The notes beneath the pieces were generated by a model. That model was not told where the DNA came from, ran no database searches, and saw nothing but the letters and a program-made list of their open reading frames with translations. A DNA stretch of 64,000 nucleotides from Bacteroidetes bacterium 46-16 (GTDB lineage Bacteria; Bacteroidota; Bacteroidia; Chitinophagales; Chitinophagaceae), in the NCBI GenBank assembly GCA_001897835.1, contig MKUN01000042.1, positions 447-64,446 of the forward strand, given 5' to 3'. Within the stretch, counting starts at the first letter, position 1. Each line of letters opens with the position of its first letter. The position numbers and the translations under genes were made by a program. Of the stretch, positions 2,855 through 64,000 are shown piece after piece.

Positions 2855-3734
2855 ATTCATTATTTAAGATTTGGAGCATCCTGCCGACTTCAATATCCAT
2901 TCTTGAAAACGCAAACCATTTTTTGCCCAGGTCTTTGAGTGATGCTCCTATATGGTAGAGTTCTGCATTATCAATAATCAAAAATCGGTCGTGGGCATCG
3001 GAGAAAACCTCAATAGTTACTGGAGGATATTGGCTATTGTAGCGTTGTAAGTCTAACCGTAACTGATTGCTGATGCTTTTGGTAAGGATTGTAGCGGTTA
3101 CATTGTTTTTACGCTTACCCAGTAAAATAAGCACCGTATCATCCACGTAATTATCAAGCAGGATAATTGAGCTTACGGCACTTCGGATAATATCGGAAAC
3201 AAAGGTGTAGGCATCAAATACCTGCCCGTTGTAGAAAATGCCTTTTTCGCTGTGCAGCTTGTCGCTTTCCAAAGCCTTAAAAATCTCTTCAAATTTTTGG
3301 TCGGCTTCCAGTTGCTTTAATTCGATATTATCCAAACGATGAAACAAAGAAGCGTTGCTAATGAGCATACGCCGCATTTCTACAAAGGCTTCCATTATTT
3401 CCACACTCATTTTAACGGCTATATCTGAACGGAGTATGGCAGATGCCATTGCAACGCCTTGTTCGGTAAAAACATAGGGCAAATAACGTCTGCCGCCGTA
3501 ATTTAAACTTGAGGTTCCAATTTGGAACCTCAAGTTTTCAACTTCCTCTTCGGTCAGTTGAAAGCAGAATGATACAGGAAAACGCTCAATATTTCTTTTT
3601 ACGGCTTTGTTCAGGTTCTTTGTTTCCACCTGATATAAGGCGGCGAGGTCGCTATCCAACATTACCTGTTTGCCCCGAATGGTATAAATCAGGTTCCTGA
3701 TTTTTTTGGGTACGATTGACGGTTTATTTTCCAT
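2853..3734 (-). CDS. ORF6N-domain (KilA-N-like DNA-binding) protein
   Basis: N-terminus IRGKQVMLDSDLAALYQVETKNLNKAVKRNIERFP is typical of ORF6N proteins of Bacteroidota ICEs. The ATG at 3734 overlaps the topoisomerase stop by 11 nt. The longest ORF would start at 3767. Confidence 0.75.
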   Translation of the reverse strand: MENKPSIVPKKIRNLIYTIRGKQVMLDSDLAALYQVETKNLNKAVKRNIERFPVSFCFQLTEEEVENLRFQIGTSSLNYGGRRYLPYVFTEQGVAMASAILRSDIAVKMSVEIMEAFVEMRRMLISNASLFHRLDNIELKQLEADQKFEEIFKALESDKLHSEKGIFYNGQVFDAYTFVSDIIRSAVSSIILLDNYVDDTVLILLGKRKNNVTATILTKSISNQLRLDLQRYNSQYPPVTIEVFSDAHDRFLIIDNAELYHIGASLKDLGKKWFAFSRMDIEVGRMLQILNNE

Positions 3735-5823: not shown

Positions 5824-7284
5824 TTACATTTTTCTGCCTTTGGATTTTGCAGGCTTGTTATCCTGTTGCTCCTGCTGCTTCTCGTTTTTCGGTCTTTGCT
5901 GCCCGGACTTCAAAGGCTCTTGGACGTTCTTGGTCGCTTCGTTGGTTTTACCCTCCGAATTGACGGCAGTTTGTGTTTTATGATTTTCTGCAGGTTCTAC
6001 CCGTGCTTTGTACTGACCGGGAAACTCAAAATTGGTCTTTCCGGTATCTTTGTCGAACGTGATATAACCCTTATACGGTTGGTCTTTTTTGTCTTTCAGT
6101 TCAACGTATATGGTTTGTCCGGCTTTGAACTTGTTGTACTGCTCATCATCCAGTTCTTTGCCCCTGAAAGTTCTTGGAACTTCCTGCGGTTGGCTTTGCT
6201 GATTGCTTTGTTTGTTATTCTGTTGGTCCGTTTGCGCTTGCTGATTGGTGTTGCTTCTGTCAAACAGGAATTCAACGTATCGTTTGTCCGCATTGAATTG
6301 TACCGTTGCCGAAAACTCTGTTCCCTTAGTGGAAATCATACCCTCTAAATAGAGTGGTTTGCCCTCCATCAGCGTTTGCTTTTGTTCGTCATTCAGCTTT
6401 ACGCCCTTAATTTCATCGGGAATTTTGATAAACTCCGTGCGCAGTGCAATCACATCATTGGTCAGCCTGTCAATGCTGATAATGGACGGCATCAGTTCGC
6501 CTGTTTTAGAATTTACCAAATTGACGACACGCCCCATATTACCCGTTTCGAGCAGGTTTTTCTTGTCTTCGTCCGTAAACTTGTGACCGAAAAACTCAAA
6601 GTGGAGGTTAGGTTCTCTTTTGATACCGTGTATTGCCACGATAACATTGCCGTCTTCCGCTTGCTGTAAAGACAGGCGGGCATCCGTGCGGAGGATAGAA
6701 CCACCGAGGTTAATACCTATCGGTAAAAGCTCATTGGTTTTATAACCTCGTAACAAAGGGTCGAGCAGGTTCCTTTTTTCAAGATATTCCTTGCTTAATC
6801 CGAGGTTTTTCATTGTGTCCCAATCAATCTGCTCCGGCTTGTAGCGGTATTCGCTTGCTTCCGTTGTTGTTTGTGCTGTTGCCATATTATTTTGATTTTC
6901 TTGTTTTTTATCCGGTTGGGGTTCTGCTTTTACTTCGTGTTCTTTCAGCACTTTTTCGCCCTGTGGAGTGGGCTTATCTACGTGCTTTTGCAGTTCCTCT
7001 GCTTTTTCAGCAGCAACCGGGGCAGGCACTTTGAAGAAAGTAAAGTTTGTAGGGTTCTTTAACTGGCTGAAAAAATTGGAAAAGAAGTTGGAAAAGAAAT
7101 CGCCGCTTTTATCCACACGCATAAACTGGTTTTGGTTTTTTTTGGTGGGGTCAACGGTTTCCATTTTCCCGTTTTCGTCGATACTCTTTACCGCCTGGAT
7201 TTTCATTTTCTCTTTATCCAGTACGAGTAATATGTCCGAAAGCTGTTCGGGCATTTCCTGCTTATTGGTTGTTTCTTCACTCAT
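5824..7284 (-). CDS. DUF3945/DUF4099-type conjugative-element protein (CTnDOT Orf3 position)
   Basis: Large hydrophilic protein with Q/N/K-rich linkers, sitting between the two HTH genes and the topoisomerase as in CTnDOT-type elements. Probable ATG at 7284 (MSEETTNK); the longest ORF reaches 7332. Confidence 0.6.
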   Translation of the reverse strand: MSEETTNKQEMPEQLSDILLVLDKEKMKIQAVKSIDENGKMETVDPTKKNQNQFMRVDKSGDFFSNFFSNFFSQLKNPTNFTFFKVPAPVAAEKAEELQKHVDKPTPQGEKVLKEHEVKAEPQPDKKQENQNNMATAQTTTEASEYRYKPEQIDWDTMKNLGLSKEYLEKRNLLDPLLRGYKTNELLPIGINLGGSILRTDARLSLQQAEDGNVIVAIHGIKREPNLHFEFFGHKFTDEDKKNLLETGNMGRVVNLVNSKTGELMPSIISIDRLTNDVIALRTEFIKIPDEIKGVKLNDEQKQTLMEGKPLYLEGMISTKGTEFSATVQFNADKRYVEFLFDRSNTNQQAQTDQQNNKQSNQQSQPQEVPRTFRGKELDDEQYNKFKAGQTIYVELKDKKDQPYKGYITFDKDTGKTNFEFPGQYKARVEPAENHKTQTAVNSEGKTNEATKNVQEPLKSGQQRPKNEKQQEQQDNKPAKSKGRKM

Positions 7285-17521: not shown

Positions 17522-18043
17522 ATGCGCAGCATATACCTCATATTGGCCATACTGCTCCTCGCCTGCCGTCGCAATGCCCCGCAGCCCGGCAAGGTTGAGG
17601 CCATCGACTGCCTCTATGCCGACCCCATCCCCGCAGAGCCTGCCGATACGCTAAGGCCCGATAGCCTCGTGGCCTTCGCCCAAAGCCTCCTGGGCAAGCC
17701 TTACAGCTATGGCTGCTCCTCGCCCTCCACCGGCTTCGACTGCTCGGGCTTCATAGGCTATGTGTTTGGCCATTTTGGTATCAGGGTGCCGCGCTCCTCG
17801 GTCGACTTTACCAACGAGGGTACCGAAATACCCCTCAGCGAAGCCCGCCCCGGCGACCTTATCCTCTTTACCGGTACCAACAGCAGCATCCGCACCGTGG
17901 GCCATATCGGCATGATCATGGCCAACGACAGTGCAGGCATCCGCTTCATCCACTCCTCCTCGGGCCGCGAAGATGCGGTCATTATCACCAGCCTCAACGA
18001 GCGCTATATGGAACGCTTTGTGAAGGTGATCCGGATGCTTTGA
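17522..18043 (+). CDS. NlpC/P60 (C40) peptidoglycan hydrolase lipoprotein
   Basis: Lipobox LLLAC, catalytic GFDCSGF and GHIGMI motifs. Confidence 0.85.
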   Translation: MRSIYLILAILLLACRRNAPQPGKVEAIDCLYADPIPAEPADTLRPDSLVAFAQSLLGKPYSYGCSSPSTGFDCSGFIGYVFGHFGIRVPRSSVDFTNEGTEIPLSEARPGDLILFTGTNSSIRTVGHIGMIMANDSAGIRFIHSSSGREDAVIITSLNERYMERFVKVIRML

Positions 18044-18223
18044 CCAAGCCACGCTTCTGATCTTCTGGAATATGCAAAACCGGAAGTGAATTTTGAAAGA
18101 TTTTTTTTCATTATCAATTGATCATCAGCCAATAAAAGCAAGTTACCTGATGTGAATAGCACTTCCGATTTGCTGCATTTTACTTCTGGTTGGCTTCAGT
18201 AAGCGGAAATAGTTATATGGCTT

Positions 18224-18338
18224 AATTTCCGGTTTCCGGTAGGAAAGTTATTTCCGGTTTGGAATGAGGGAATCGGTGGAAATGCTTGCTGGAAGCGCCG
18301 TATTACATTTCAATATAATTTCCGGTTGTTACCGGTTT
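18224..18338. repeat. Cluster of TTTCCGGTT direct repeats
   Basis: TTTCCGGT occurs at 18226, 18233, 18251 and 18319. The inverted copy ACCGGTTT lies at 18331. Degenerate versions (ACCGGAA 18079, CTTCCGA 18162) lie upstream. Confidence 0.5.
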
Positions 18339-18350
18339 GTCTTTTAATGT

Positions 18351-18381
18351 AGCACGTACGGGAGTCGAACCCATACGTACT
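18351..18381 (-). ncRNA. tRNA-like acceptor/T-arm minihelix (or relic of a tRNA 3' end)
   Basis: The minus strand reads AGTACGTATGGG-TTCGACT-CCCGTACGTGCT. This is a 12-bp helix (2 G-U pairs) closed by a canonical T-loop (GG TTCGACT CC), followed by A. On the plus strand the G-U pairs become A-C mismatches, so the fold is strand-specific. Confidence 0.4.
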
Positions 18382-18551
18382 CCAGGGATTACGGCCCCAC
18401 GATGCGGGATGCAGGATTTACAGTGATGTCAAAGAACTTGCCCGGTACTAAAAAAGTACTGAACTACGCACCGCCGCCACTAAAAAAGCTAAGGCGGTTG
18501 TCAAATATACACCCGTTAACAAGCGGAATCCAAATGAGATATCCACATTTG

Positions 18552-18896
18552 TTAAATCGGAATGGAATAATAACTTGAGATATCCAGGGATATTTTTGAA
18601 ACTCTGAAATTAATACAATGATCTTTAATGCTGGCGACCCATCTATATCTACCTTTATGTCCATACATATATCTTGCCTGAAAGGCGCCCCGAACATGTG
18701 CAAACGGCACAATGTAATAGTCTGAGAATGTGTCCTTATCACCAAATATAATTATATTAAAATCGTCGCCATTGGCTTTTCTATATAATTCAATTTTGCT
18801 TTTAGCAAACCCTACCCAATATCCAGTAGAGATATCTGCCTTTAAAACATAATTTGAAAGACTTAAATTAAGACGATTAGCTAAGATTTTGTTCAT
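18552..18896 (-). CDS. Hypothetical 114-aa protein, last gene of the island operon
   Basis: ATG start lies 11 nt after the upstream stop. Same strand and composition as the operon. No recognisable motifs. Confidence 0.5.
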   Translation of the reverse strand: MNKILANRLNLSLSNYVLKADISTGYWVGFAKSKIELYRKANGDDFNIIIFGDKDTFSDYYIVPFAHVRGAFQARYMYGHKGRYRWVASIKDHCINFRVSKISLDISSYYSIPI

Positions 18897-18907
18897 AGTT
18901 TATGCTA

Positions 18908-19690
18908 TTATAAAAGTGGGATGATGGCCAATAAATAACCTATTAACAAACCAAGAAACATTGTCAGAGGATGGCTTATTATCTCTATAAAAATTGCATA
19001 CCTGTTTTTGTTCTTTACCCTTAGCTTTTTTACGCTTAAAAGCTTTACTGCTTTACATATAAAATCAGTTTTGCAATCCAACGAATTCAGAACAGCCGAA
19101 TAATTTTTATTCTCAAATTCTAAACCTTCATATTCCAGTGACAAATACTGTCGATCTAAAACAGCTCCGTTATTATACGCAATAAGACTTCTAAGTTTGT
19201 CTGGGCCGTCTATGTATTCTTCACCATACATCCCTTCTAATACTAACGCTAAATTAACCTTATTTCTCATAGGTATTTCCTCATATCGTTCCTTACTCAA
19301 ACCAGCAAAAATTTTCTCGAACCTATGTTTTATAGCTTCAAATCCAAAATGAATATTTTTCATATCCCAGTGCACCCAAACATCATCGTCGTGTCTCTTT
19401 ACAAATTCATTGAATGCTTTCAAAGTCATAAACTCAAGATCACGATAAGAATTTTCAATTTCTTCTATAGGTATATTCGCTTTGTCTGCTTCTAGATGTA
19501 CTGCAAAATGACGTTCAAAACTGCCATCTAATGATTTTATAACGATAGCTGATACCAAAGGTGAAATTTCCCCGTATTCATCATCATATGTACGTAGTTG
19601 AGAATAATGTACAATTAGAACCTTAGATGGATCTATAATCAGCCTCTTAAGCTTTCTTATTGCTAAATTTCTGGTTCTTATAACTCCCAC
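18908..19690 (-). CDS. Hypothetical 260-aa protein with a C-terminal transmembrane anchor
   Basis: The GTG start shares one base with the helicase stop (TAGTG). The soluble body has no motifs I recognise. The last ~25 aa (PLTMFLGLLIGYLLAIIPLL) are a hydrophobic helix. Confidence 0.55.
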   Translation of the reverse strand: MGVIRTRNLAIRKLKRLIIDPSKVLIVHYSQLRTYDDEYGEISPLVSAIVIKSLDGSFERHFAVHLEADKANIPIEEIENSYRDLEFMTLKAFNEFVKRHDDDVWVHWDMKNIHFGFEAIKHRFEKIFAGLSKERYEEIPMRNKVNLALVLEGMYGEEYIDGPDKLRSLIAYNNGAVLDRQYLSLEYEGLEFENKNYSAVLNSLDCKTDFICKAVKLLSVKKLRVKNKNRYAIFIEIISHPLTMFLGLLIGYLLAIIPLL

Positions 19691-22521
19691 TACCTAATGC
19701 ATTTTGAGTTATACTTAAGTCTATAATAGCATAATCGATTTTCATAACAGGAATCACATTTTTCCTTATCTTCCACCTTTGTAAAATCTTCATCTCTAAT
19801 TTTTTCAACAGCAGATTTAATCTTGTCCTCAATTTCGTTTAAATCAGAATCTAGTAATTTTTCAGGAGTTTTGGGATTGTTTTCTCCAATTATATATGTC
19901 ATGATATAATCAGCTCTCTGACCCGTAAGTTCTCTATGTCCAAGAGCATATAATTTTAGCTGATCTTTGGTTACCCGAGTTACTATAGGCTTGTCTTCAC
20001 TTTTAAATTCAACGATTGTTGTCTCAAACTTCCCAGACTCATTTCTTTTTTTTATTAAATCAATTCTTCCAAGCACTAAAATATTTTCATCGAGTTTATA
20101 CTGTATATCCTGTTCAACGAATTCAATATTATCAAAATCATCCTTATTGTCTTCATAATAATCAACGACATTGTTTCTTACTTTTCGCCAGAGTGGTCGC
20201 TTTAGTTTCGTTGACTTTGTGAGATAAGGAAAATTTGTCTGTCTTTCAACTAACCTGATGAGATCCTTTGTATTAAGTTCCTCCTGTTTTTGCGCCCTTT
20301 TATGAATTTCCATAAGCGCATTGTGGAAAGATCTACCAACTCCCATTCTTTGATTAAGTGGAAATTTGAAACCATACATCGAAACCAATTTAAACCTATA
20401 TGGACAATCGAAAAAGTCTTTTAGCGTCGTAAAATCTAGTGAAATATTTTTTATTTTTTCCTTAGGCTTTGAATCAATTTTAAGCTGTGACGAAAAATCT
20501 TCTTTTTTATCTTGAACCAAAACGTTGGCACGTCTTAGTTCTCCTGCAAATTGAGACTCTACTCTATAAAGTCGGTTATCAAGATCTGGAGCTCTGGAAA
20601 GCAAAAGATACTTCTGACTTCTAGTTATTGCTACATACAACAAACGTCTTTCGTCTTCTTTATCATCATTACCTTCATATCTTGGTTGCTCACTAATTAA
20701 TGCCCGATCTAAAAAATGCCACTCATTCAACCCACCTTTCTTTTTTGAGGGTAGATAATTTTTATTTAGGCCTGGTATAATAACAACCGGGAACTCCAAT
20801 CCCTTTGCCTGATGTATTGTCATAATTTGCACTGCGTTCGGCGTTTTATAAGGATTATTAAGCCAACCTTGTGGATAGTAATCTCGCGCCGCGTAAGTAA
20901 TGAAGCTTAAAAAAGAAAATAAATGCCTGGCTGGAGAAACACTATTGAAATTTATTTCCTCAAAATCATTTATTACCTGACTGAATTTGCCAAGATTAAA
21001 GAAAATAATTTCTGCTTTCTCTCTGCTTTTTTTAAGTATCTCCGAATTAGAATCATCAATAAAATTATCTTCATAAATCTCCCCATCAACAATAAATTCC
21101 CATAGGATATCTTGTAAAGAATATTCCCAATTATCTCTTACAGTATTTAAATCTGGCTTTCGTTTGCTTAAATTATCTACAGCCATCTTTAATTTCTTTA
21201 CATCAAGCCGATTGTTTGGTAGTTTCGTCCAAAGCTTTATTAACTCATCTGCCTCAATATCTCCATACAAAAAGTAATAAATGCCTAATGCCCCTTCTAC
21301 CTCTGGCGTCTCAAAAAGCTGATTTACACCAGCAGTTATATAGGGGATATTATGTTTATCCAATTCTTCAACAATTGTCTCAGCCTTGCTCCATGTACGT
21401 AATAATATTGCAATATCAGAGTATGCTAATCCACGTTTTTTCTCTTCTCGATCAGAAAATTCGACACCGATAATGTTTTCAATGTATTCTGCGATAGCTT
21501 CATTTTCTTCTGAAACACTATCGTATTCATTGAATAATAAATCCTGTCCTTTTGCAAACGATTGCCTATGGTCTGAAACCATACTCTTATTCCTAATCCT
21601 ATCAATATTGTTGGCAATTAGAGTTTCTGCCAATCTAGTTATACCTTCTGAACTCCTATAATTAATACCAAGCGGAATATTTTTGAACTCTGCCTCATTA
21701 AATTTCTTATCAAAGTTGATTATGTATTTATTATTGCTACCTCTCCATTGATATATATTTTGATCATCATCCCCAACTACAACTACATTACAACCACTAA
21801 TTTCATGCAGCTTGTTTATCAATTTTTCCTGAATTGGATTTACATCTTGATACTCATCAACAATCAAATACTTTAAACTCTGTTCAATTTTCTTTGTTAA
21901 ATTGCTATCAGGTTTTAAAGATTCAATTGCCCGATCCATTATCATAGAAAAATCGAAGAATTTTTTACTAAGCAAAGTTTGTTCGTACTTTTTCTTGGCA
22001 CTCTTTATATTTTCAGGAAGCTCATTCTCTAAATCTGACTCTCGGACAATGTCCATTATCCTTGCGAATATGGACGTATCAATAAATCGGCGAAGTGGCA
22101 CTGCAGGATTACTTAATTTAGCAATGTCTTTCATACCAATGCGCTCATAATACTTATCTATAAAGAGCTTTAATTTTATTTCATCCAAAACTGAAAAACT
22201 CTGATACTCATAAATATTATCTTGTAACGCTTTTAAACACCAGCCATGTATCGTGCCAATATACATGTTAGCCATTCCTGTATAGTGACCTGAGGCATTT
22301 AATATTTTATTTTTTAGCTCTGCCGCCGCCTTATCAGTATATGTAAAAGCAATAATGTTCTCTGGTTTTAGATCATAGCCATTTGCAGGATCAAGCAAAT
22401 AGGCGACCTTCCCCGCTATAGTGGTGGTTTTTCCAGATCCTGCACAAGCAATAATCCTTAGATGCTTATCATTTATAGATATGGCCTCCTGCTGTTTGGG
22501 AGATAGTTCATCGAATTGCAT
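19690..22521 (-). CDS. UvrD/PcrA-type SF1 helicase fused to a C-terminal Cas4/AddB-like PD-(D/E)XK nuclease with Cys4 cluster
   Basis: Helicase motifs: AGSGKTTT (Walker A), LIVDEYQDVNP, VVVGDDDQNIYQWRG, INYRS, IHQAKGLEFPVV, LLYVAITRSQ. Nuclease motifs: FFDCPYRF, GRIDLI, IVEFKS, QLKLYALG, CDSCYENRLC. Confidence 0.85.
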   Translation of the reverse strand: MQFDELSPKQQEAISINDKHLRIIACAGSGKTTTIAGKVAYLLDPANGYDLKPENIIAFTYTDKAAAELKNKILNASGHYTGMANMYIGTIHGWCLKALQDNIYEYQSFSVLDEIKLKLFIDKYYERIGMKDIAKLSNPAVPLRRFIDTSIFARIMDIVRESDLENELPENIKSAKKKYEQTLLSKKFFDFSMIMDRAIESLKPDSNLTKKIEQSLKYLIVDEYQDVNPIQEKLINKLHEISGCNVVVVGDDDQNIYQWRGSNNKYIINFDKKFNEAEFKNIPLGINYRSSEGITRLAETLIANNIDRIRNKSMVSDHRQSFAKGQDLLFNEYDSVSEENEAIAEYIENIIGVEFSDREEKKRGLAYSDIAILLRTWSKAETIVEELDKHNIPYITAGVNQLFETPEVEGALGIYYFLYGDIEADELIKLWTKLPNNRLDVKKLKMAVDNLSKRKPDLNTVRDNWEYSLQDILWEFIVDGEIYEDNFIDDSNSEILKKSREKAEIIFFNLGKFSQVINDFEEINFNSVSPARHLFSFLSFITYAARDYYPQGWLNNPYKTPNAVQIMTIHQAKGLEFPVVIIPGLNKNYLPSKKKGGLNEWHFLDRALISEQPRYEGNDDKEDERRLLYVAITRSQKYLLLSRAPDLDNRLYRVESQFAGELRRANVLVQDKKEDFSSQLKIDSKPKEKIKNISLDFTTLKDFFDCPYRFKLVSMYGFKFPLNQRMGVGRSFHNALMEIHKRAQKQEELNTKDLIRLVERQTNFPYLTKSTKLKRPLWRKVRNNVVDYYEDNKDDFDNIEFVEQDIQYKLDENILVLGRIDLIKKRNESGKFETTIVEFKSEDKPIVTRVTKDQLKLYALGHRELTGQRADYIMTYIIGENNPKTPEKLLDSDLNEIEDKIKSAVEKIRDEDFTKVEDKEKCDSCYENRLCYYRLKYNSKCIR

Positions 22522-22523
22522 TT

Positions 22524-23783
22524 CTATGCTTTTTTCATAATTACTATGTATTCTTTATTCATTAGAGTTGATGCTTTGCCGGCGATACCTGTAGGACTGT
22601 TTTTTCGCGGCATTCTCTTACTTGAAATTTTTCTTGTAAACGTTTGCACATGCCTGAAGCCATTTTCCTCAAAAAAATGCTTGGTTATTAAATCCGTTTT
22701 AAGTGTAACACCTTGAACACATCTATTACTAACTACATAACACGCGTGACCATTCTTTTTTACTATCCTGGAGATATTAGCAATAGAATCGTAGTAGTCT
22801 TTATAAAACGAATAAACTTCTAAAGCTCTTTTTTGACTCCTTGCTTTTATTTCAGCTATTTGCCCATTTAATGTTCTTGAACAATCAAATCTCTCTATCG
22901 CTTCGTGCTTTTTACCTCCCATCAAGTTGCGGTCTATTGCTTGAGAATTACTATAACTCAACCATTCATTAGCCAGCCTTGAAAATTGTCCATACGCAAC
23001 AGTGGTTTGAGAATCGCCATACGGCGGAGATGTTACTACCAAATTTACACTCCTATTAGGTACTATTTCCAACGGAATGCCACTAACAGTATTAAAATCA
23101 TATACATGGCTAATTGATGGTTGCCTTTTTTGGTTCATAAAATCCAATAAAGCGAATCGATTTGATTTCAAAACTTGCTCAATATGTGCAAAGACATTAG
23201 GTTTGAACGTTTTAACCTTTTCGCTGTCCATCTTGTACAACTTAAATTCATTTTTTCTGGTCCAGGAACAATCCCGTATAGTTTGACTAAACGCCACGTT
23301 AAAGAAGTTCCTCACAGATTCAGATTCAAGCGTATCAATGTAGGCTTTAATAATAGCTAAGTCCTGTTTAACACTTTTTGAAAACCAAAAATCAATATTT
23401 GAAAAATGAGGTATATCAATCTCGTCTATTATAGGAATGGAATCATTTTTACTAAATCCCATCCGAAATTGAAAAAGATGGTCATAAAAATCTTTGAGAT
23501 ATAAATCCAATGTCTTTTGCTCTATAACCGTTGTCTTAGCACTTGCCAATATTCTTGCCAAAGGATTTAGATCCGTACCAATGGCATCTATTCCCCTAAC
23601 ATTTGCCTCAACCAGAGATGTCCCAGTTCCACAATAAGGGTCAAAAAGGAAATTGCTCTTCTTACTCTTAAAAGAATCAATCAATCTACTTGCCACTTGT
23701 GGTATCATCATTGCAGGATACATGTGAAATCCATGTGTCAATGTCTTTGTATTTTCTTCAGTAAAATCCCAGCTATTTGCCAT
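22524..23783 (-). CDS. DNA methyltransferase, N4-C/N6-A type (PF01555-like) with AdoMet motif before catalytic SPPY
   Basis: HMYPAMMIPQVASRLI...FDPYCGTGTSLVEA (motif I region) lies near residue 50. VTSPPYGD (motif IV) lies near residue 250. Its stop is 2 nt from the helicase ATG. Confidence 0.8.
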   Translation of the reverse strand: MANSWDFTEENTKTLTHGFHMYPAMMIPQVASRLIDSFKSKKSNFLFDPYCGTGTSLVEANVRGIDAIGTDLNPLARILASAKTTVIEQKTLDLYLKDFYDHLFQFRMGFSKNDSIPIIDEIDIPHFSNIDFWFSKSVKQDLAIIKAYIDTLESESVRNFFNVAFSQTIRDCSWTRKNEFKLYKMDSEKVKTFKPNVFAHIEQVLKSNRFALLDFMNQKRQPSISHVYDFNTVSGIPLEIVPNRSVNLVVTSPPYGDSQTTVAYGQFSRLANEWLSYSNSQAIDRNLMGGKKHEAIERFDCSRTLNGQIAEIKARSQKRALEVYSFYKDYYDSIANISRIVKKNGHACYVVSNRCVQGVTLKTDLITKHFFEENGFRHVQTFTRKISSKRMPRKNSPTGIAGKASTLMNKEYIVIMKKA

Positions 23784-23849: not shown

Positions 23850-23998
23850 TGATTTTCTCGTTTTTTTTATTAATGGAATACAAAAAACGGTGAAATCGTG
23901 CGAAAGAAATACTGTTTTTCTAAAATGTGGATATTTTTATCTTATGTAAGTACTGTTTAGAAAAAGCTTTGATTGAGCTGAGCCAGTAGTTCTCAGGA

Positions 23999-24051
23999 GA
24001 TCATTCGTCGCGCAGTCAGCACGCAAGGGCTATAGCGCTCCTCATGATGAC
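23999..24051 (-). repeat. REP-like intergenic element, copy X
   Basis: The reverse complement GTCATCATGAGGAGCGCTATAGCCCTTGCGTGCTGACTGCGCGACGAATGATC aligns by eye with copy A (17404-17455). Confidence 0.35.
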
Positions 24052-24095
24052 GGCCTTGATCGTGCGTTTAACCCTTCCGTCCTTAGGACGCCTCC

Positions 24096-24140
24096 AGATT
24101 GCTTCCCCGATAGGAATAGGGACAGGCGTACCTCGCGAAG
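24096..24140 (-). repeat. REP-like intergenic element, shorter copy B
   Basis: The reverse complement CTTCGCGAGG...GGAAGCAATCT shares both termini with copy A. Confidence 0.3.
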
Positions 24141-24229
24141 ACGCACAGAGGCCATGTTTCTACATCCCCCTGGCCCCCTTCGCAGGCGCACATGCCATCG
24201 CGCAAGGGGGAAAAGCTGCACGCTGCTAC

Positions 24230-24820
24230 TTAATTAGGCACTTCGCCTTTATCCACCAGCATAGTGCCTTTTTGATTGAGGATGCGGTACCAGGAGAAGT
24301 CCTGGTTGGCTTCGAGGCCGTCGCCGTACATTACGAGTGTGGGGGTGGTGATCTTCACGAATTTCTCGGTAAAGAACTTCTGTATGCTCTGGTTCCATAC
24401 CAGCTCTTCGGTATTGAGGGTCTCCCCTTTCTTATTCACCACCACTATATTGTCGCGGATGAGGAAATTGCCCTGCTTCTCGTAATAGCGGGCATAGTTG
24501 GCGGTGAGGGTGCTTTCCACCTGCATGCTGTCGTTATACACCTCGGCCTTTATGCCCTTCTTCATGTCCATATAGGGGGGCTTTGCGGCATCGTTGCTGA
24601 TGTATTCGGTGGCGTATATACGGGCCTTCACCTTGCCATGCTCGCTGTATATGAGGGTAATATCCTCGGCACGGTCGACCTGGTAAAGGCTCTTGCCGGT
24701 GAGGGCGGATATCTCCTTAGGATCGTTCTTGCAGGCGGCGAGGAGCAGCAAAAACAAAAGGGCCTCCCGCCCAAAGCGGAACCGATGGCGGTCTGTGCGG
24801 CATTGCTGCCATTTAATCAT
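24230..24820 (-). CDS. lptC: LPS export periplasmic protein LptC (OstA-like fold)
   Basis: Lipoprotein-like signal (LLLLLAAC) and a beta-jellyroll LptC-type sequence. Conserved coaX-OMP-lptC context. Confidence 0.65.
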   Translation of the reverse strand: MIKWQQCRTDRHRFRFGREALLFLLLLAACKNDPKEISALTGKSLYQVDRAEDITLIYSEHGKVKARIYATEYISNDAAKPPYMDMKKGIKAEVYNDSMQVESTLTANYARYYEKQGNFLIRDNIVVVNKKGETLNTEELVWNQSIQKFFTEKFVKITTPTLVMYGDGLEANQDFSWYRILNQKGTMLVDKGEVPN

Positions 24821-26108
24821 ACCTGCGCTTTATGAACCACTTATCGTTGAGCGAGATACCGAGCGACATCTTGAAGAAGTTCTCCTTCACAAGGCCATTG
24901 GCCTCGGTGCCGCGCTTGCCTATCTCGAAGGCGGTATGTATGCGATCGCTATAGCGCTTGAAGGGCAGGCTGAAGCCGAAAGTAAGGGCGTAGTAATTGA
25001 TATCGGTGCCCTTGATGTACACATGGTCTTTGCCATAGTAGGCGCCGAGGCGGTAGGTGATGCGCTGCAGGTAATTGTGTATACTGAGGGGGTTGGGGGT
25101 ATAAGCACCGCCCAGGCCCATCCTGTAGCTATTGGTGACGGAATCGACCATGCCGAAGTTGCGGAACTGGCTCCACTGCACGGCTGAGAAGTCGAGGCCG
25201 GCGCTCCACTTGTCGCCATTCATGAGCTGCGCGCCTATGCTGTAGGACATGGGCAGCTTAAGGGTGCCTTTGGTACCGGTAAGGGTGTAGGCGGTATCTT
25301 CCTGCAGGCTGCCGCCGAGGTTGAAGTAGGTGAGCCAATACTGGTCGCGAAAGGCGCGGAGGTCCTGGCTGAGGGTAAAGGTGCCGCCTATGCGGAAGCT
25401 GAGGTTGGTATCGAGCTTGTGCTCGTATTGCAGGCCTGCCTTCCAGTATATGCCGCCCACGCGGGTGAACTGCGATATATCGGTATTGACGGCATGGGTG
25501 GTATCGATATTGGAGAATACGCTGGTATTGCGTATGGTGCCGAAGCTGTAACCGAAGTTGACGCCGAGGCTAAAGCCCTTGACCTTGCCGGCAAAGCCTG
25601 CAAAGGCGTAGTTGAGGGCGCCATCGCCATAGTAGGTATTGATGGTTTGCCCTATGCCGGGTGTGCCCACGGTATCGTTGAGGTGATAATATACGTGCGA
25701 CTGCGGGCGGAGGCCGAGGGCCATGCCTGCATGCTTGCCGAGAGGGAAGCCTATAGTAAGGTAGGACAGCGTGGCCATGCCGGTGCGGCTGCTTACCTGG
25801 TTGGCGGTAACGGTGGAGAGGGAGCCCTGCATGCCACCTTCGTAGGTGGTGAGGAGCAAGCCCGCATAGGAGGCCGGGTTATCGGTATTGACCTGGTAAG
25901 GGCTGGAAAAGGCGGAGGATATATTACCCATGCCTTTGATAACGGTATTGTTACCGTTGACCAGCTCGCCAATGCCATAGCGCGAATAGGGCTCGTTCTT
26001 TCGGTTAGAGGTCGGGTTGCTTACCGAACTGGTTTGTGCGGTAGCTGCAATGCCTGTGAAAATGAATGATATAAGAGTAAAAAAGTGCTTAGCGCGAATA
26101 TGGCACAT
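24813..26108 (-). CDS. Outer-membrane beta-barrel protein of unknown function
   Basis: Signal peptide plus alternating aromatic/glycine-rich beta-strand pattern throughout. It overlaps coaX (20 nt) and lptC (8 nt), so it belongs to the same operon. Confidence 0.45.
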   Translation of the reverse strand: MCHIRAKHFFTLISFIFTGIAATAQTSSVSNPTSNRKNEPYSRYGIGELVNGNNTVIKGMGNISSAFSSPYQVNTDNPASYAGLLLTTYEGGMQGSLSTVTANQVSSRTGMATLSYLTIGFPLGKHAGMALGLRPQSHVYYHLNDTVGTPGIGQTINTYYGDGALNYAFAGFAGKVKGFSLGVNFGYSFGTIRNTSVFSNIDTTHAVNTDISQFTRVGGIYWKAGLQYEHKLDTNLSFRIGGTFTLSQDLRAFRDQYWLTYFNLGGSLQEDTAYTLTGTKGTLKLPMSYSIGAQLMNGDKWSAGLDFSAVQWSQFRNFGMVDSVTNSYRMGLGGAYTPNPLSIHNYLQRITYRLGAYYGKDHVYIKGTDINYYALTFGFSLPFKRYSDRIHTAFEIGKRGTEANGLVKENFFKMSLGISLNDKWFIKRRYD

Positions 26109-37971: not shown

Positions 37972-38043
37972 GGTCCCGTAGTTCAATGGATAGAATAGAA
38001 GTTTCCTAAACTTTAGATCCAAGTTCGATTCTTGGCGGGACTA
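37972..38043 (+). tRNA. tRNA-Arg (anticodon CCT)
   Basis: Manual cloverleaf: acceptor GGTCCCG/CGGGACT, D arm GTTC-AATGGATA-GAAT, anticodon arm GAAGT-TTCCTAA-ACTTT, variable AGAT, T arm CCAAG-TTCGATT-CTTGG, discriminator A. CCA is not encoded. Confidence 0.85.
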
Positions 38044-38085
38044 CTAAAAGTGAGTAACGATTTGCAGTGACAGACGAACTTCTAT

Positions 38086-57982: not shown

Positions 57983-58353
57983 ACAATAGTCTTTTTCGTT
58001 TTGCCTACTCTCTCTCCGGGCTTTTCAGCTTCCGCCCTGTGCTCTTTAAAATGATCCTCTTGTGTATAAATAATAAACTCTAAGAGAGAAAACAGGTAAA
58101 GAATATTGCGCAAACAGTATGCCAGTTAAGGCTTTCCTAAAATTATTTGGCCTATCCTTCCAGGCGTTTCGCATTAAATCATTGATTCACAATACTGAGC
58201 ATTTGTCATATTTATTTCAAAATTTTTTTGCTGCTAAGAAATTGACCGCTTCGCAGACCTTGTTCACCGACCTCTTTATGCAACTTACCTAAATCAGCTT
58301 CATAGCATCAAAGACACCGGGTACTTTTACATGGTTTTAATAAGAAAGGAAAA

Positions 58354-62330: not shown

Positions 62331-62339
62331 AATAAATAT

Positions 62340-62449
<110 letters not shown>

Positions 62450-62571
62450 ATGGTTGATAAGTTGAACGGCTGATCAGTTGACAAGTTCCCTTGTTCAATT
62501 AACCACCACTTATCTTAATAAGATCGACATATTGGGTCAGCAAATTTTGTTTTCGTTTGGGCAAATATTGT

Positions 62572-64000
<1,429 letters not shown>

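Follow-up and report, generated by a model that had tools for sequence, protein, structure and literature searches.

Acceptor/T-arm minihelices are substrates of RNase P, of the CCA-adding enzyme and of some aminoacyl-tRNA synthetases. In E. coli tyrT-rtT, copies of the last 19-25 nt of the tRNA lie outside the gene. Simple tyrosine-recombinase sites such as loxP, FRT and dif consist of two inverted arms around a 6-8-bp spacer, and CIMEs and site-specific accretion are known from the Streptococcus elements ICESt1 and ICESt3. Williams is said to have distinguished sublocation classes for tDNA attachment sites in 2002. In the Islander survey, an attP of the 'T-stem region' class was counted in 1836 of 3919 islands (PMC4383910).

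The element described here lies in a window of 64,000 nt (contig MKUN01000042.1) from Bacteroidetes bacterium 46-16, the window being the whole stretch of DNA that was analysed. Like the displaced 3' tDNA fragments of Islander, it contains an exact copy of a tRNA from the T-stem to the 3' end at the border of a compositionally foreign islet; it belongs to the same 'T-stem region' class (PMC4383910), and the core of the minihelix also lies beside an integrase at the metagenome locus L029. It differs from Islander islands in lacking an intact tRNA at the other end, an integrase and a partner repeat, and from Islander fragments in that both flanks are repeat-module DNA and a 9-nt inverted extension has been added. 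With acceptor/T-arm minihelices it has in common the 12-bp coaxial helix (7+5), the canonical T-loop and one discriminator-like unpaired A. Model minihelices, however, are laboratory constructs or parts of tRNAs, whereas here no CCA is encoded, the form is not conserved and the likeness is one read from sequence. As in REP/BIME elements, the hairpin appears to occupy the slot of a dispersed intergenic subrepeat with covarying stems (in units picked for pairing), but REP-like subrepeats have a stem of 6-7 bp and a loop of 8-10 nt, while the minihelix is tRNA-derived and has 12 bp and a loop of 7 nt. The tyrT-rtT repeats are likewise tRNA 3'-end copies outside the gene, and an array at a second metagenome locus, L047, is such a case; the window, by contrast, has a lone copy that lies at a distance from the tRNA gene and has been lengthened to form a hairpin. 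Like a CIME, the locus has integrase-less cargo beside an att-type core, and an attP-like hybrid site would be the expected remnant of tandem accretion plus deletions. CIMEs have att sites at both ends, whereas one core copy only is present here.

The minus strand forms, at positions 18381-18351, a 12-bp helix without interruption, with two G-U pairs and a canonical 7-nt T-loop. The 5' arm AGTACGTATGGG (18381-18370) is preceded by CCCTGG, and it is followed by the T-loop TTCGACT (18369-18363), the 3' arm CCCGTACGTGCT (18362-18351), an unpaired A (18350) and CATTAAAAG. In tRNA numbering the G-U pairs are U3-G70 and U50-G64, and the loop with its closing pair reads G53-T54-T55-C56-G57-A58..C61. 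The helix, the T-loop residues and the trailing A were found exactly as described in a first-pass annotation of this DNA, which had placed the element about 170 nt downstream of the last gene; the minihelix begins 171 nt past the stop of a 114-aa ORF (18552). The same annotation had held that the wobble pairs exist on the minus strand only. As RNA, the minus-strand 40-mer folds at -19.9 kcal/mol (z = -4.7; 0 of 200 shuffles equalled it) and the plus-strand 40-mer at -10.7 kcal/mol (z = -1.6).

The element had further been described as not an ordinary tRNA gene, and neither ARAGORN nor Rfam found a cloverleaf. No tRNA or tmRNA was called by ARAGORN at the minihelix, the sole tRNA of the window being tRNA-Arg(CCT) at 37972-38044; the tmRNA gene of this bacterium, whose assembly is referred to below as G000, is located on contig C40. 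A search of 17800-19000 against Rfam 15 at E<=10 gave no tRNA-like match, and the four matches obtained were at chance level, belonged to unrelated families and did not overlap 18340-18400. A cloverleaf, an intron-containing tRNA and a permuted tRNA around the hairpin were rejected, with both programs empty and the upstream region consisting of module sequence. A GGTGCGT 7-mer about 95 nt upstream of the hairpin could pair with the acceptor 3' strand. An intrinsic terminator was rejected too, the stem tail ACAUUAAAAG having no T-run and the terminator scan being empty at 18351-18381. Elsewhere in the window, a DUF805b RNA motif was found at 58002-58038 on the minus strand (41.1 bits). The minus strand also carries a 5S rRNA gene (62336-62447) and the 3' half of a 23S rRNA gene (62567-64000) at the end of the window, which therefore ends inside an rRNA operon.

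The 3' part of the element comes from tRNA-Glu. [quoted passage not shown] The genome has a single tRNA-Glu(UUC) gene, and the 24-mer occurs twice genome-wide, in this gene and in the minihelix. The edge of identity is sharp, with 0 differences in 24 nt and unrelated sequence beyond. To the 5' side of the GGG boundary the parent tRNA reads ...GGAGGAATGAC and the window ...GGAGTACGTAT; with GGAATGAC-GGG in the parent against AGTACGTAT-GGG in the window, the 7 nt before the T stem are non-tRNA. The first-pass annotation had read the element as a possible att scar and had raised an objection to this, which is upheld in that the 7 nt preceding the T stem differ from the tRNA-Glu sequence. The whole-genome search for a parent tRNA did find tRNA-Glu(UUC), but the identity covers 24 nt only. 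The att scar reading held for the 3' 24 nt, which are the end of tRNA-Glu, and failed in so far as the locus does not have the make-up of a classical island end. An island of the classical kind with tRNA-Glu as its boundary was rejected, because the tRNA locus, on the other contig (C34), is unoccupied and has its own terminator directly 3', as in congeners, and a genome search that allowed up to 3 mismatches gave no further copy of the core, nor is there any at the other end of the islet. The att core is called orphaned since the only tRNA-Glu lies on another contig and its locus is unoccupied.

When the 24-mer was scanned across metagenome contigs, 34 loci were obtained, 32 of which are ordinary tRNA-Glu genes (L-numbers denote individual loci or contigs). 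The block starts at the same GGG at two independent metagenome loci, L029 and L047. In the contig L029 the block stands alone and is followed by a hairpin and then by a tyrosine integrase gene (PF00589, 35.5 bits; cut-off 27.1). L047 (Ga0302185_10003251, reverse strand 6634-6990) contains a complete tRNA-Glu and then three tandem 80-nt copies of the block plus terminator, each from GGG, an array that recalls the E. coli tyrT/rtT repeats. The left boundary of the window block is within 1 nt of that of the integrase-linked copies. Relatives of the L029 integrase (37-46% identity) are common, and some directly adjoin tRNA genes; in a Flavipsychrobacter MAG the order is tRNA-Leu(CAG), hairpin, CCGGACAA repeats, int. 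No relative of this integrase family was detectable in G000. The L029 block has no extended inverted repeat, and matching between the integrase-linked arms (L029, L068, L069) and the module was limited to the 25-nt core. Given the identity with tRNA-Glu and the same boundary beside the L029 integrase, we read the 24-mer as an att core, of which it has the extent, boundary and company. A phage origin was considered and set aside; the 23-mer is absent from IMG/VR and the one viral contig with block B (see below) has no tRNA piece, which is uninformative. At L067 (IMGVR_UViG_3300023480_000111, 3130-3460) the block-B motif is part of a non-coding region that a 50-nt direct repeat bounds, immediately 3' of an excisionase-like small ORF and with no tRNA piece.

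Immediately 5' of the block, a 9-nt extension, AGTACGTAT (18373-18381, minus strand; non-tRNA by comparison with the parent tRNA), turns the T-stem remnant into a 12-bp inverted repeat. Only 3 of the 12 pairs (GGG/CCC) are supplied by the tRNA-derived block, and the 5' arm is the reverse complement of the 3' arm but for two C-to-T transitions. By simulation and from all 9-mers of the window, the chance that 9 upstream nt pair fully with GTACGTGCT (G-U allowed) is 1.6e-4, and that of at least 7 of 9 Watson-Crick pairs is 1.2e-3. The pairing stays unusual even after correction for the about eight orphan fragments inspected, and the 9-nt complementarity is not fully explained by chance or by tRNA origin. 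The extension may be an element-side core half-site that mirrors the tRNA-side half-site across the overlap, or it may be an effect of the slot, which normally bears a hairpin in the REP-like subrepeats of the module. A mirrored half-site is no general requirement, as the L029 core and the tRNA-fMet fragments of sister genomes have no mirror; the integrase half-site reading of the extension is possible but not required. Exactly this sequence would result if the arm had been copied by fold-back or template switching and had then undergone two C-to-T transitions; such copying could account for the complementarity, and so could selection that favours a hairpin in the slot. We infer the origin of the 5' arm from these comparisons.

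The hairpin is surrounded by a modular repeat of about 400 bp (18560-18150) that is present at several loci in the genus, in the order block A (promoter-like), block B (boxA-like), variable core, block C and block D. Block A (18502-18550, minus strand) is conserved in L013, L016, L017, L004 and other G000 loci. It contains the DnaA-box-like AAATGTGGATAT (18550-18539) and a pair of elements reading towards the minihelix, TTTG (18534-18531) and, after 21 nt, TATATTTG (18509-18502), which we take to be promoter-like after the Bacteroidota type. The real tRNA-Glu gene is preceded by a like layout, TTTG-N19-TATCTTTG. Block B, AAGTTCTTTGACATCACTGTAAATCC (18412-18438, minus strand), is a boxA-like leader motif that is 96-100% identical in the sister genomes G002 and G005, and the minihelix lies 45-60 nt downstream of it. 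The 13-mer AGTTCTTTGACAT of block B recurs at two further places, in the rrn spacer at about 90 nt from the start of the 23S gene and 20 nt before the tmRNA gene. At the latter place the boxA-like motif reads AGTTCTTTGACAGC (G000 C40:21124), about 20 nt before the mature 5' end of tmRNA (gene at 20722-21091). From its position and its likeness, as we presume, to the E. coli rrn boxA, block B may be a boxA-like antitermination signal.

Block C (18215-18349, minus strand) is a dispersed intergenic repeat with AACCGGAAAT direct repeats; on the plus strand, copies of TAATTTCCGGTT are found at 18223, 18248 and 18316. It includes a small hairpin, CCGGTAACAACCGG (18335-18322, minus strand), which on the plus strand is a terminator-like site facing nlpC/P60. 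The AACCGGAAAT repeats are also found singly, in front of housekeeping genes, of which gyrB is one. Block D (18076-18191, minus strand) starts with GAAG-rich repeats and contains TATTCACAT (18158-18150), an inverted match of ATGTGGATA of block A, and, after an AT-rich stretch, CACTTCCGGTTTT (18088-18076). The canonical block-C subrepeat consists of AAACCGGAAA, a 7-bp stem enclosing the loop AACTCCTCTC, and CCATTGAAAAGAC. Its stems covary (CCAG/CTGG, CAGG/CCTG and CCGG/CCGG; one pair is AU in 6 units and GC in 5), in units that were selected for pairing, so that the paired percentage is circular. Subrepeats of about 46-48 nt with a 6-7-bp hairpin were seen at G000 C32:51379-51470, C28:186817, C23:50208-50300, C53:122334, C6:26649 and C52:38543, and resemble terminators in the opposite strand's sequence. 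ACATTAAAAGACAAACC follows the minihelix, which therefore appears to fill a subrepeat's hairpin slot; both have the trailer (C)CATT(G/A)AAAAGACAAACC, and homology of the 5' flank is weak.

On the other side of block A lies a low-GC islet of four genes (18552-23783, minus strand; about 33% GC). The genes encode a methyltransferase, a UvrD/PD-(D/E)XK helicase-nuclease, a 260-aa protein and a 114-aa protein, the last two being unknown. The islet measures about 5.4 kb (18.55-23.95 kb) and has 33% GC against about 50% in the flanks and 46% in the genome. The flanks are core genes: next to the module lie nlpC/P60 (17522-18043, plus strand) and an rpoD-like gene, and across the islet from these a FadL-like OMP gene (24813-26108, minus strand) and CoaX. 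No recombinase or integrase was found in a Pfam search of all large ORFs between 13.5 and 35 kb, and an intact tRNA-Glu is absent from the other end of the islet. The possibility that the minihelix is part of the defence cassette was rejected; the closest homologues, L065 and L066, found via the 260-aa protein of the cassette (64-66% identity), have no T-loop motif or tRNA downstream. L064, which is another assembly of this strain, shows 100% identity over 12.6 kb and is uninformative.

At its far edge the islet carries ATATCCACATTT (23923-23934, minus strand), an inverted copy of AAATGTGGATAT of block A. Several islets are bracketed by such inverted, DnaA-box-like (A)ATATCCACATTT(T) sequences, here at 23923-23934 and 18539-18550, and likewise at L017 4172/6315, L016 6969/9295 and G000 C23:40859/42719. 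The 9-mer ATGTGGATA/TATCCACAT has 134 copies in the genome against a median of about 28 in permuted controls, one control reaching 111, and it brackets some of the islets. When ATGTGGATA/TATCCACAT were considered as terminal inverted repeats of a transposon, no transposase was found and the polarity was ambiguous. GC-rich REP-like elements (...GGGGAAAAGCTGCACGC / CCCCTTCGC...) flank the far side of the islet at 23990-24240 of the window; they were also seen at L013 (G002 C14) and at L016 9600-9760, and in sister genomes they are found as insertions within modules.

The whole module (about 400-500 bp) was located in the window at 18076-18560 and in G000 at C2:73552, C5:108999, C5:113082, C41:91639, C45:205037 and C53:69881, as well as at L015, L016 and L017; its block D ends in TATCCACAT. 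A single 4-kb islet on C5 lies between two copies of the module that face outward. The module borders many low-GC defence islets in the genus (Flavipsychrobacter-type genomes). Among the exact non-rRNA copies of the block-B 13-mer in G000, 5 of 7 have less than 38% GC in the 2 kb upstream, against a background of 5.2% of all 2-kb windows of G000. The cargo of the G000 islets includes a KAP NTPase, ABC-3C components, HNH, an AAA_15/21 ATPase and a 5-hmdU kinase with a thymidylate-synthase-like protein; that of sister-genome islets includes SIR2 with short Argonaute, an AAA_21 ATPase with DUF2971, and a C5 methylase with HNH. Gene orientation relative to the module varies, and the module therefore does not belong to a particular operon as its 3' UTR. 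Block B is of the ATCACTGTAAAYCC subtype in three modules (window, G002 C21 and G005 C58), all near the OMP gene and with different islets. At the same place, beside defence islets, the G002 and G005 modules contain tRNA-fMet 3' ends, ACAGGTTCGATCCCTGTCCTCACTAC and CAGGTTCGACCCCTGTCCTCGCTAC, whose parent is the initiator tRNA-fMet (G000 C37:19572). These fragments fold into a T-stem of 4-5 bp only and form no extended helix. The module beside the nlpC/P60 orthologue in G005 has no tRNA piece, and a tRNA fragment is absent from most modules.

Other tRNA pieces were seen in the genome. An orphan 23-nt 3' fragment of tRNA-Ser(GGA) lies at G000 C19:18170-18192, with a terminator downstream and no tRNA-Ser on the contig; the DNA upstream has 34-40% GC over at least 6 kb, making this a second orphan core at an islet edge. 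At C15:16632-17450, units of about 360 nt recur behind tRNA-Met; every unit comprises a small ORF and a degenerate copy of a tRNA, into whose variable region a hairpin is inserted. At C29:217393-217588, a partial duplicate of 36 nt comes after tRNA-Leu(GAG) and contains a hairpin insert of a similar kind.

We lean towards reading the element as a DNA relic, an orphan tRNA-Glu att core, and not as an RNA gene; most likely it is an attachment site for an integrase that was left behind where an acquired defence island ends. It is an ordinary kind of feature in an odd setting, an orphan att core being a known type of relic. The tRNA-Glu(UUC) segment would be the attachment core of a tyrosine integrase family, extending from the T-stem to 1-2 nt beyond the acceptor end, with the crossover in or next to the 7-nt T-loop. 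An integrase would have carried this core into, or left it at, the junction of the acquired low-GC defence islet and the chromosomal repeat module, and the later loss of the partner site, of the integrase and of any second tRNA-Glu copy would have made it orphaned and inert. The site looks attP-like and not attL- or attR-like, because both flanks of the fragment are homologous to modules elsewhere. Against the relic reading, an integrated element should not retain an intact attP, and no intact tRNA-Glu, integrase or second core is present at the islet; the integrase-linked L029 copy lacks the extended repeat, and the 9-nt extension is improbable by chance. DNA-level events in a hairpin-bearing repeat explain the extended pairing better than a tRNA-mimic RNA does.

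Such events might have proceeded without an integrase. A break in the REP-like hairpin of block C would have been patched with about 24 nt copied from tRNA-Glu, with microhomology between the T-loop CGACTCC and the subrepeat loop GAACTCC and between the trailer ...AAAAG and GAAAAG downstream of the tRNA, and the new hairpin would have been perfected by fold-back or template-switch synthesis. The apparently exact placing of the minihelix in the subrepeat slot with its common trailer, the near-perfect mirroring of the 3' arm by the 5' arm save two C-to-T changes, and the other partial tRNA duplications with inserted hairpins in the genome all fit a repair patch. We nevertheless hold it to be unlikely, as the GGG boundary falls within 1 nt of that of integrase-linked copies and the sister modules hold the T-stem-to-end piece of another tRNA, which is the signature of att cores. 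The 12-7-12 repeat could also be a live recombination site, an attP-like or landing-pad core for the exchange of islets beside the module, served by a tyrosine-type recombinase encoded elsewhere or brought by the incoming element. Its geometry, inverted arms around a spacer within the 6-8-bp range, fits simple tyrosine-recombinase sites; islets differ among G000, G002 and G005 beside the same module subtype, and the association of modules with islets is strong by the block-B count given above. But the islets lie upstream of block A and not at the core, tRNA fragments are missing from most modules, G000 yielded no cognate integrase and the extended form is unique in the collections searched, all of which makes a live site distinctly unlikely.

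The first-pass annotation had offered, besides an att scar, a functional tRNA mimic at the 3' end of the operon transcript. Transcription would start at the block-A promoter or reach the element as read-through of the operon, with an RNA polymerase modified at the boxA-like block B, and the RNA would then be cut by RNase P, trimmed and CCA-tailed, to serve as a processing or stability signal or as a decoy. Folding is far stronger for the minus strand, on which the two mismatches become G-U; promoter-like and boxA-like blocks lie 60-170 nt upstream on the same strand; no terminator separates the operon from the minihelix; minihelices of this kind are RNase P and CCA-adding enzyme substrates; and chance is an unlikely source of the extension. 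However, the degenerate extended-helix pattern ACGTRYGGGTTCGANTCCCRYACGT gave 0 matches in 185,579 species-representative genomes and 241 million records of metagenome contigs, so the extended form is unique there. Homologous modules in congeners have another tRNA fragment with a T-stem hairpin of 4-5 bp and no extension, or none; the two closest cassette homologues are without the element; genes of the neighbouring islets vary in orientation; Rfam gave no match; and two C-to-T transitions in an AT-drifting region account for the G-U pairs equally well. The proposal thus found no support, and we rate such an RNA as very unlikely. A still less probable origin, which we would credit with hardly any weight, is a decayed second tRNA-Glu from which positions 8-48 were deleted, joining the 5' acceptor strand to the T arm. 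The 5' arm AGTACGT does differ from the parental GGCGCGT by three transitions only, all keeping the pairing, and the relative G023 has two tandem tRNA-Glu genes. Yet 4 substitutions in 12 nt on the 5' side stand against 0 in 24 nt on the 3' side (hypergeometric p about 0.008), what lies upstream is module sequence and not the tRNA-Glu promoter, and any strand pairing with ACGTGCT must resemble GGCGCGT there.

It is improbable, in our judgement, that the minihelix is anything but inert, whether as a tRNA-mimic processing element or as a portable tRNA-type attachment core. As the former, it could set the ends of module transcripts through cuts by RNase P and the action of the CCA enzyme; as the latter, it could let tRNA-targeting integrases deliver or swap defence islets at non-tRNA sites.

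If the relic reading is right, the minihelix alone is of little import, since integrase traffic is expected to leave orphan tRNA 3' fragments behind, and it should be annotated as an orphan tRNA fragment and not as an RNA gene. Its value would be that of a marker, indicating that DNA at the islet border has passed through an element that targets tRNA-Glu. The more interesting lead is the surrounding module with its link to defence islets. If the module or tRNA-type cores place or exchange islets that have no integrase, this would bear on how such defence islets move.
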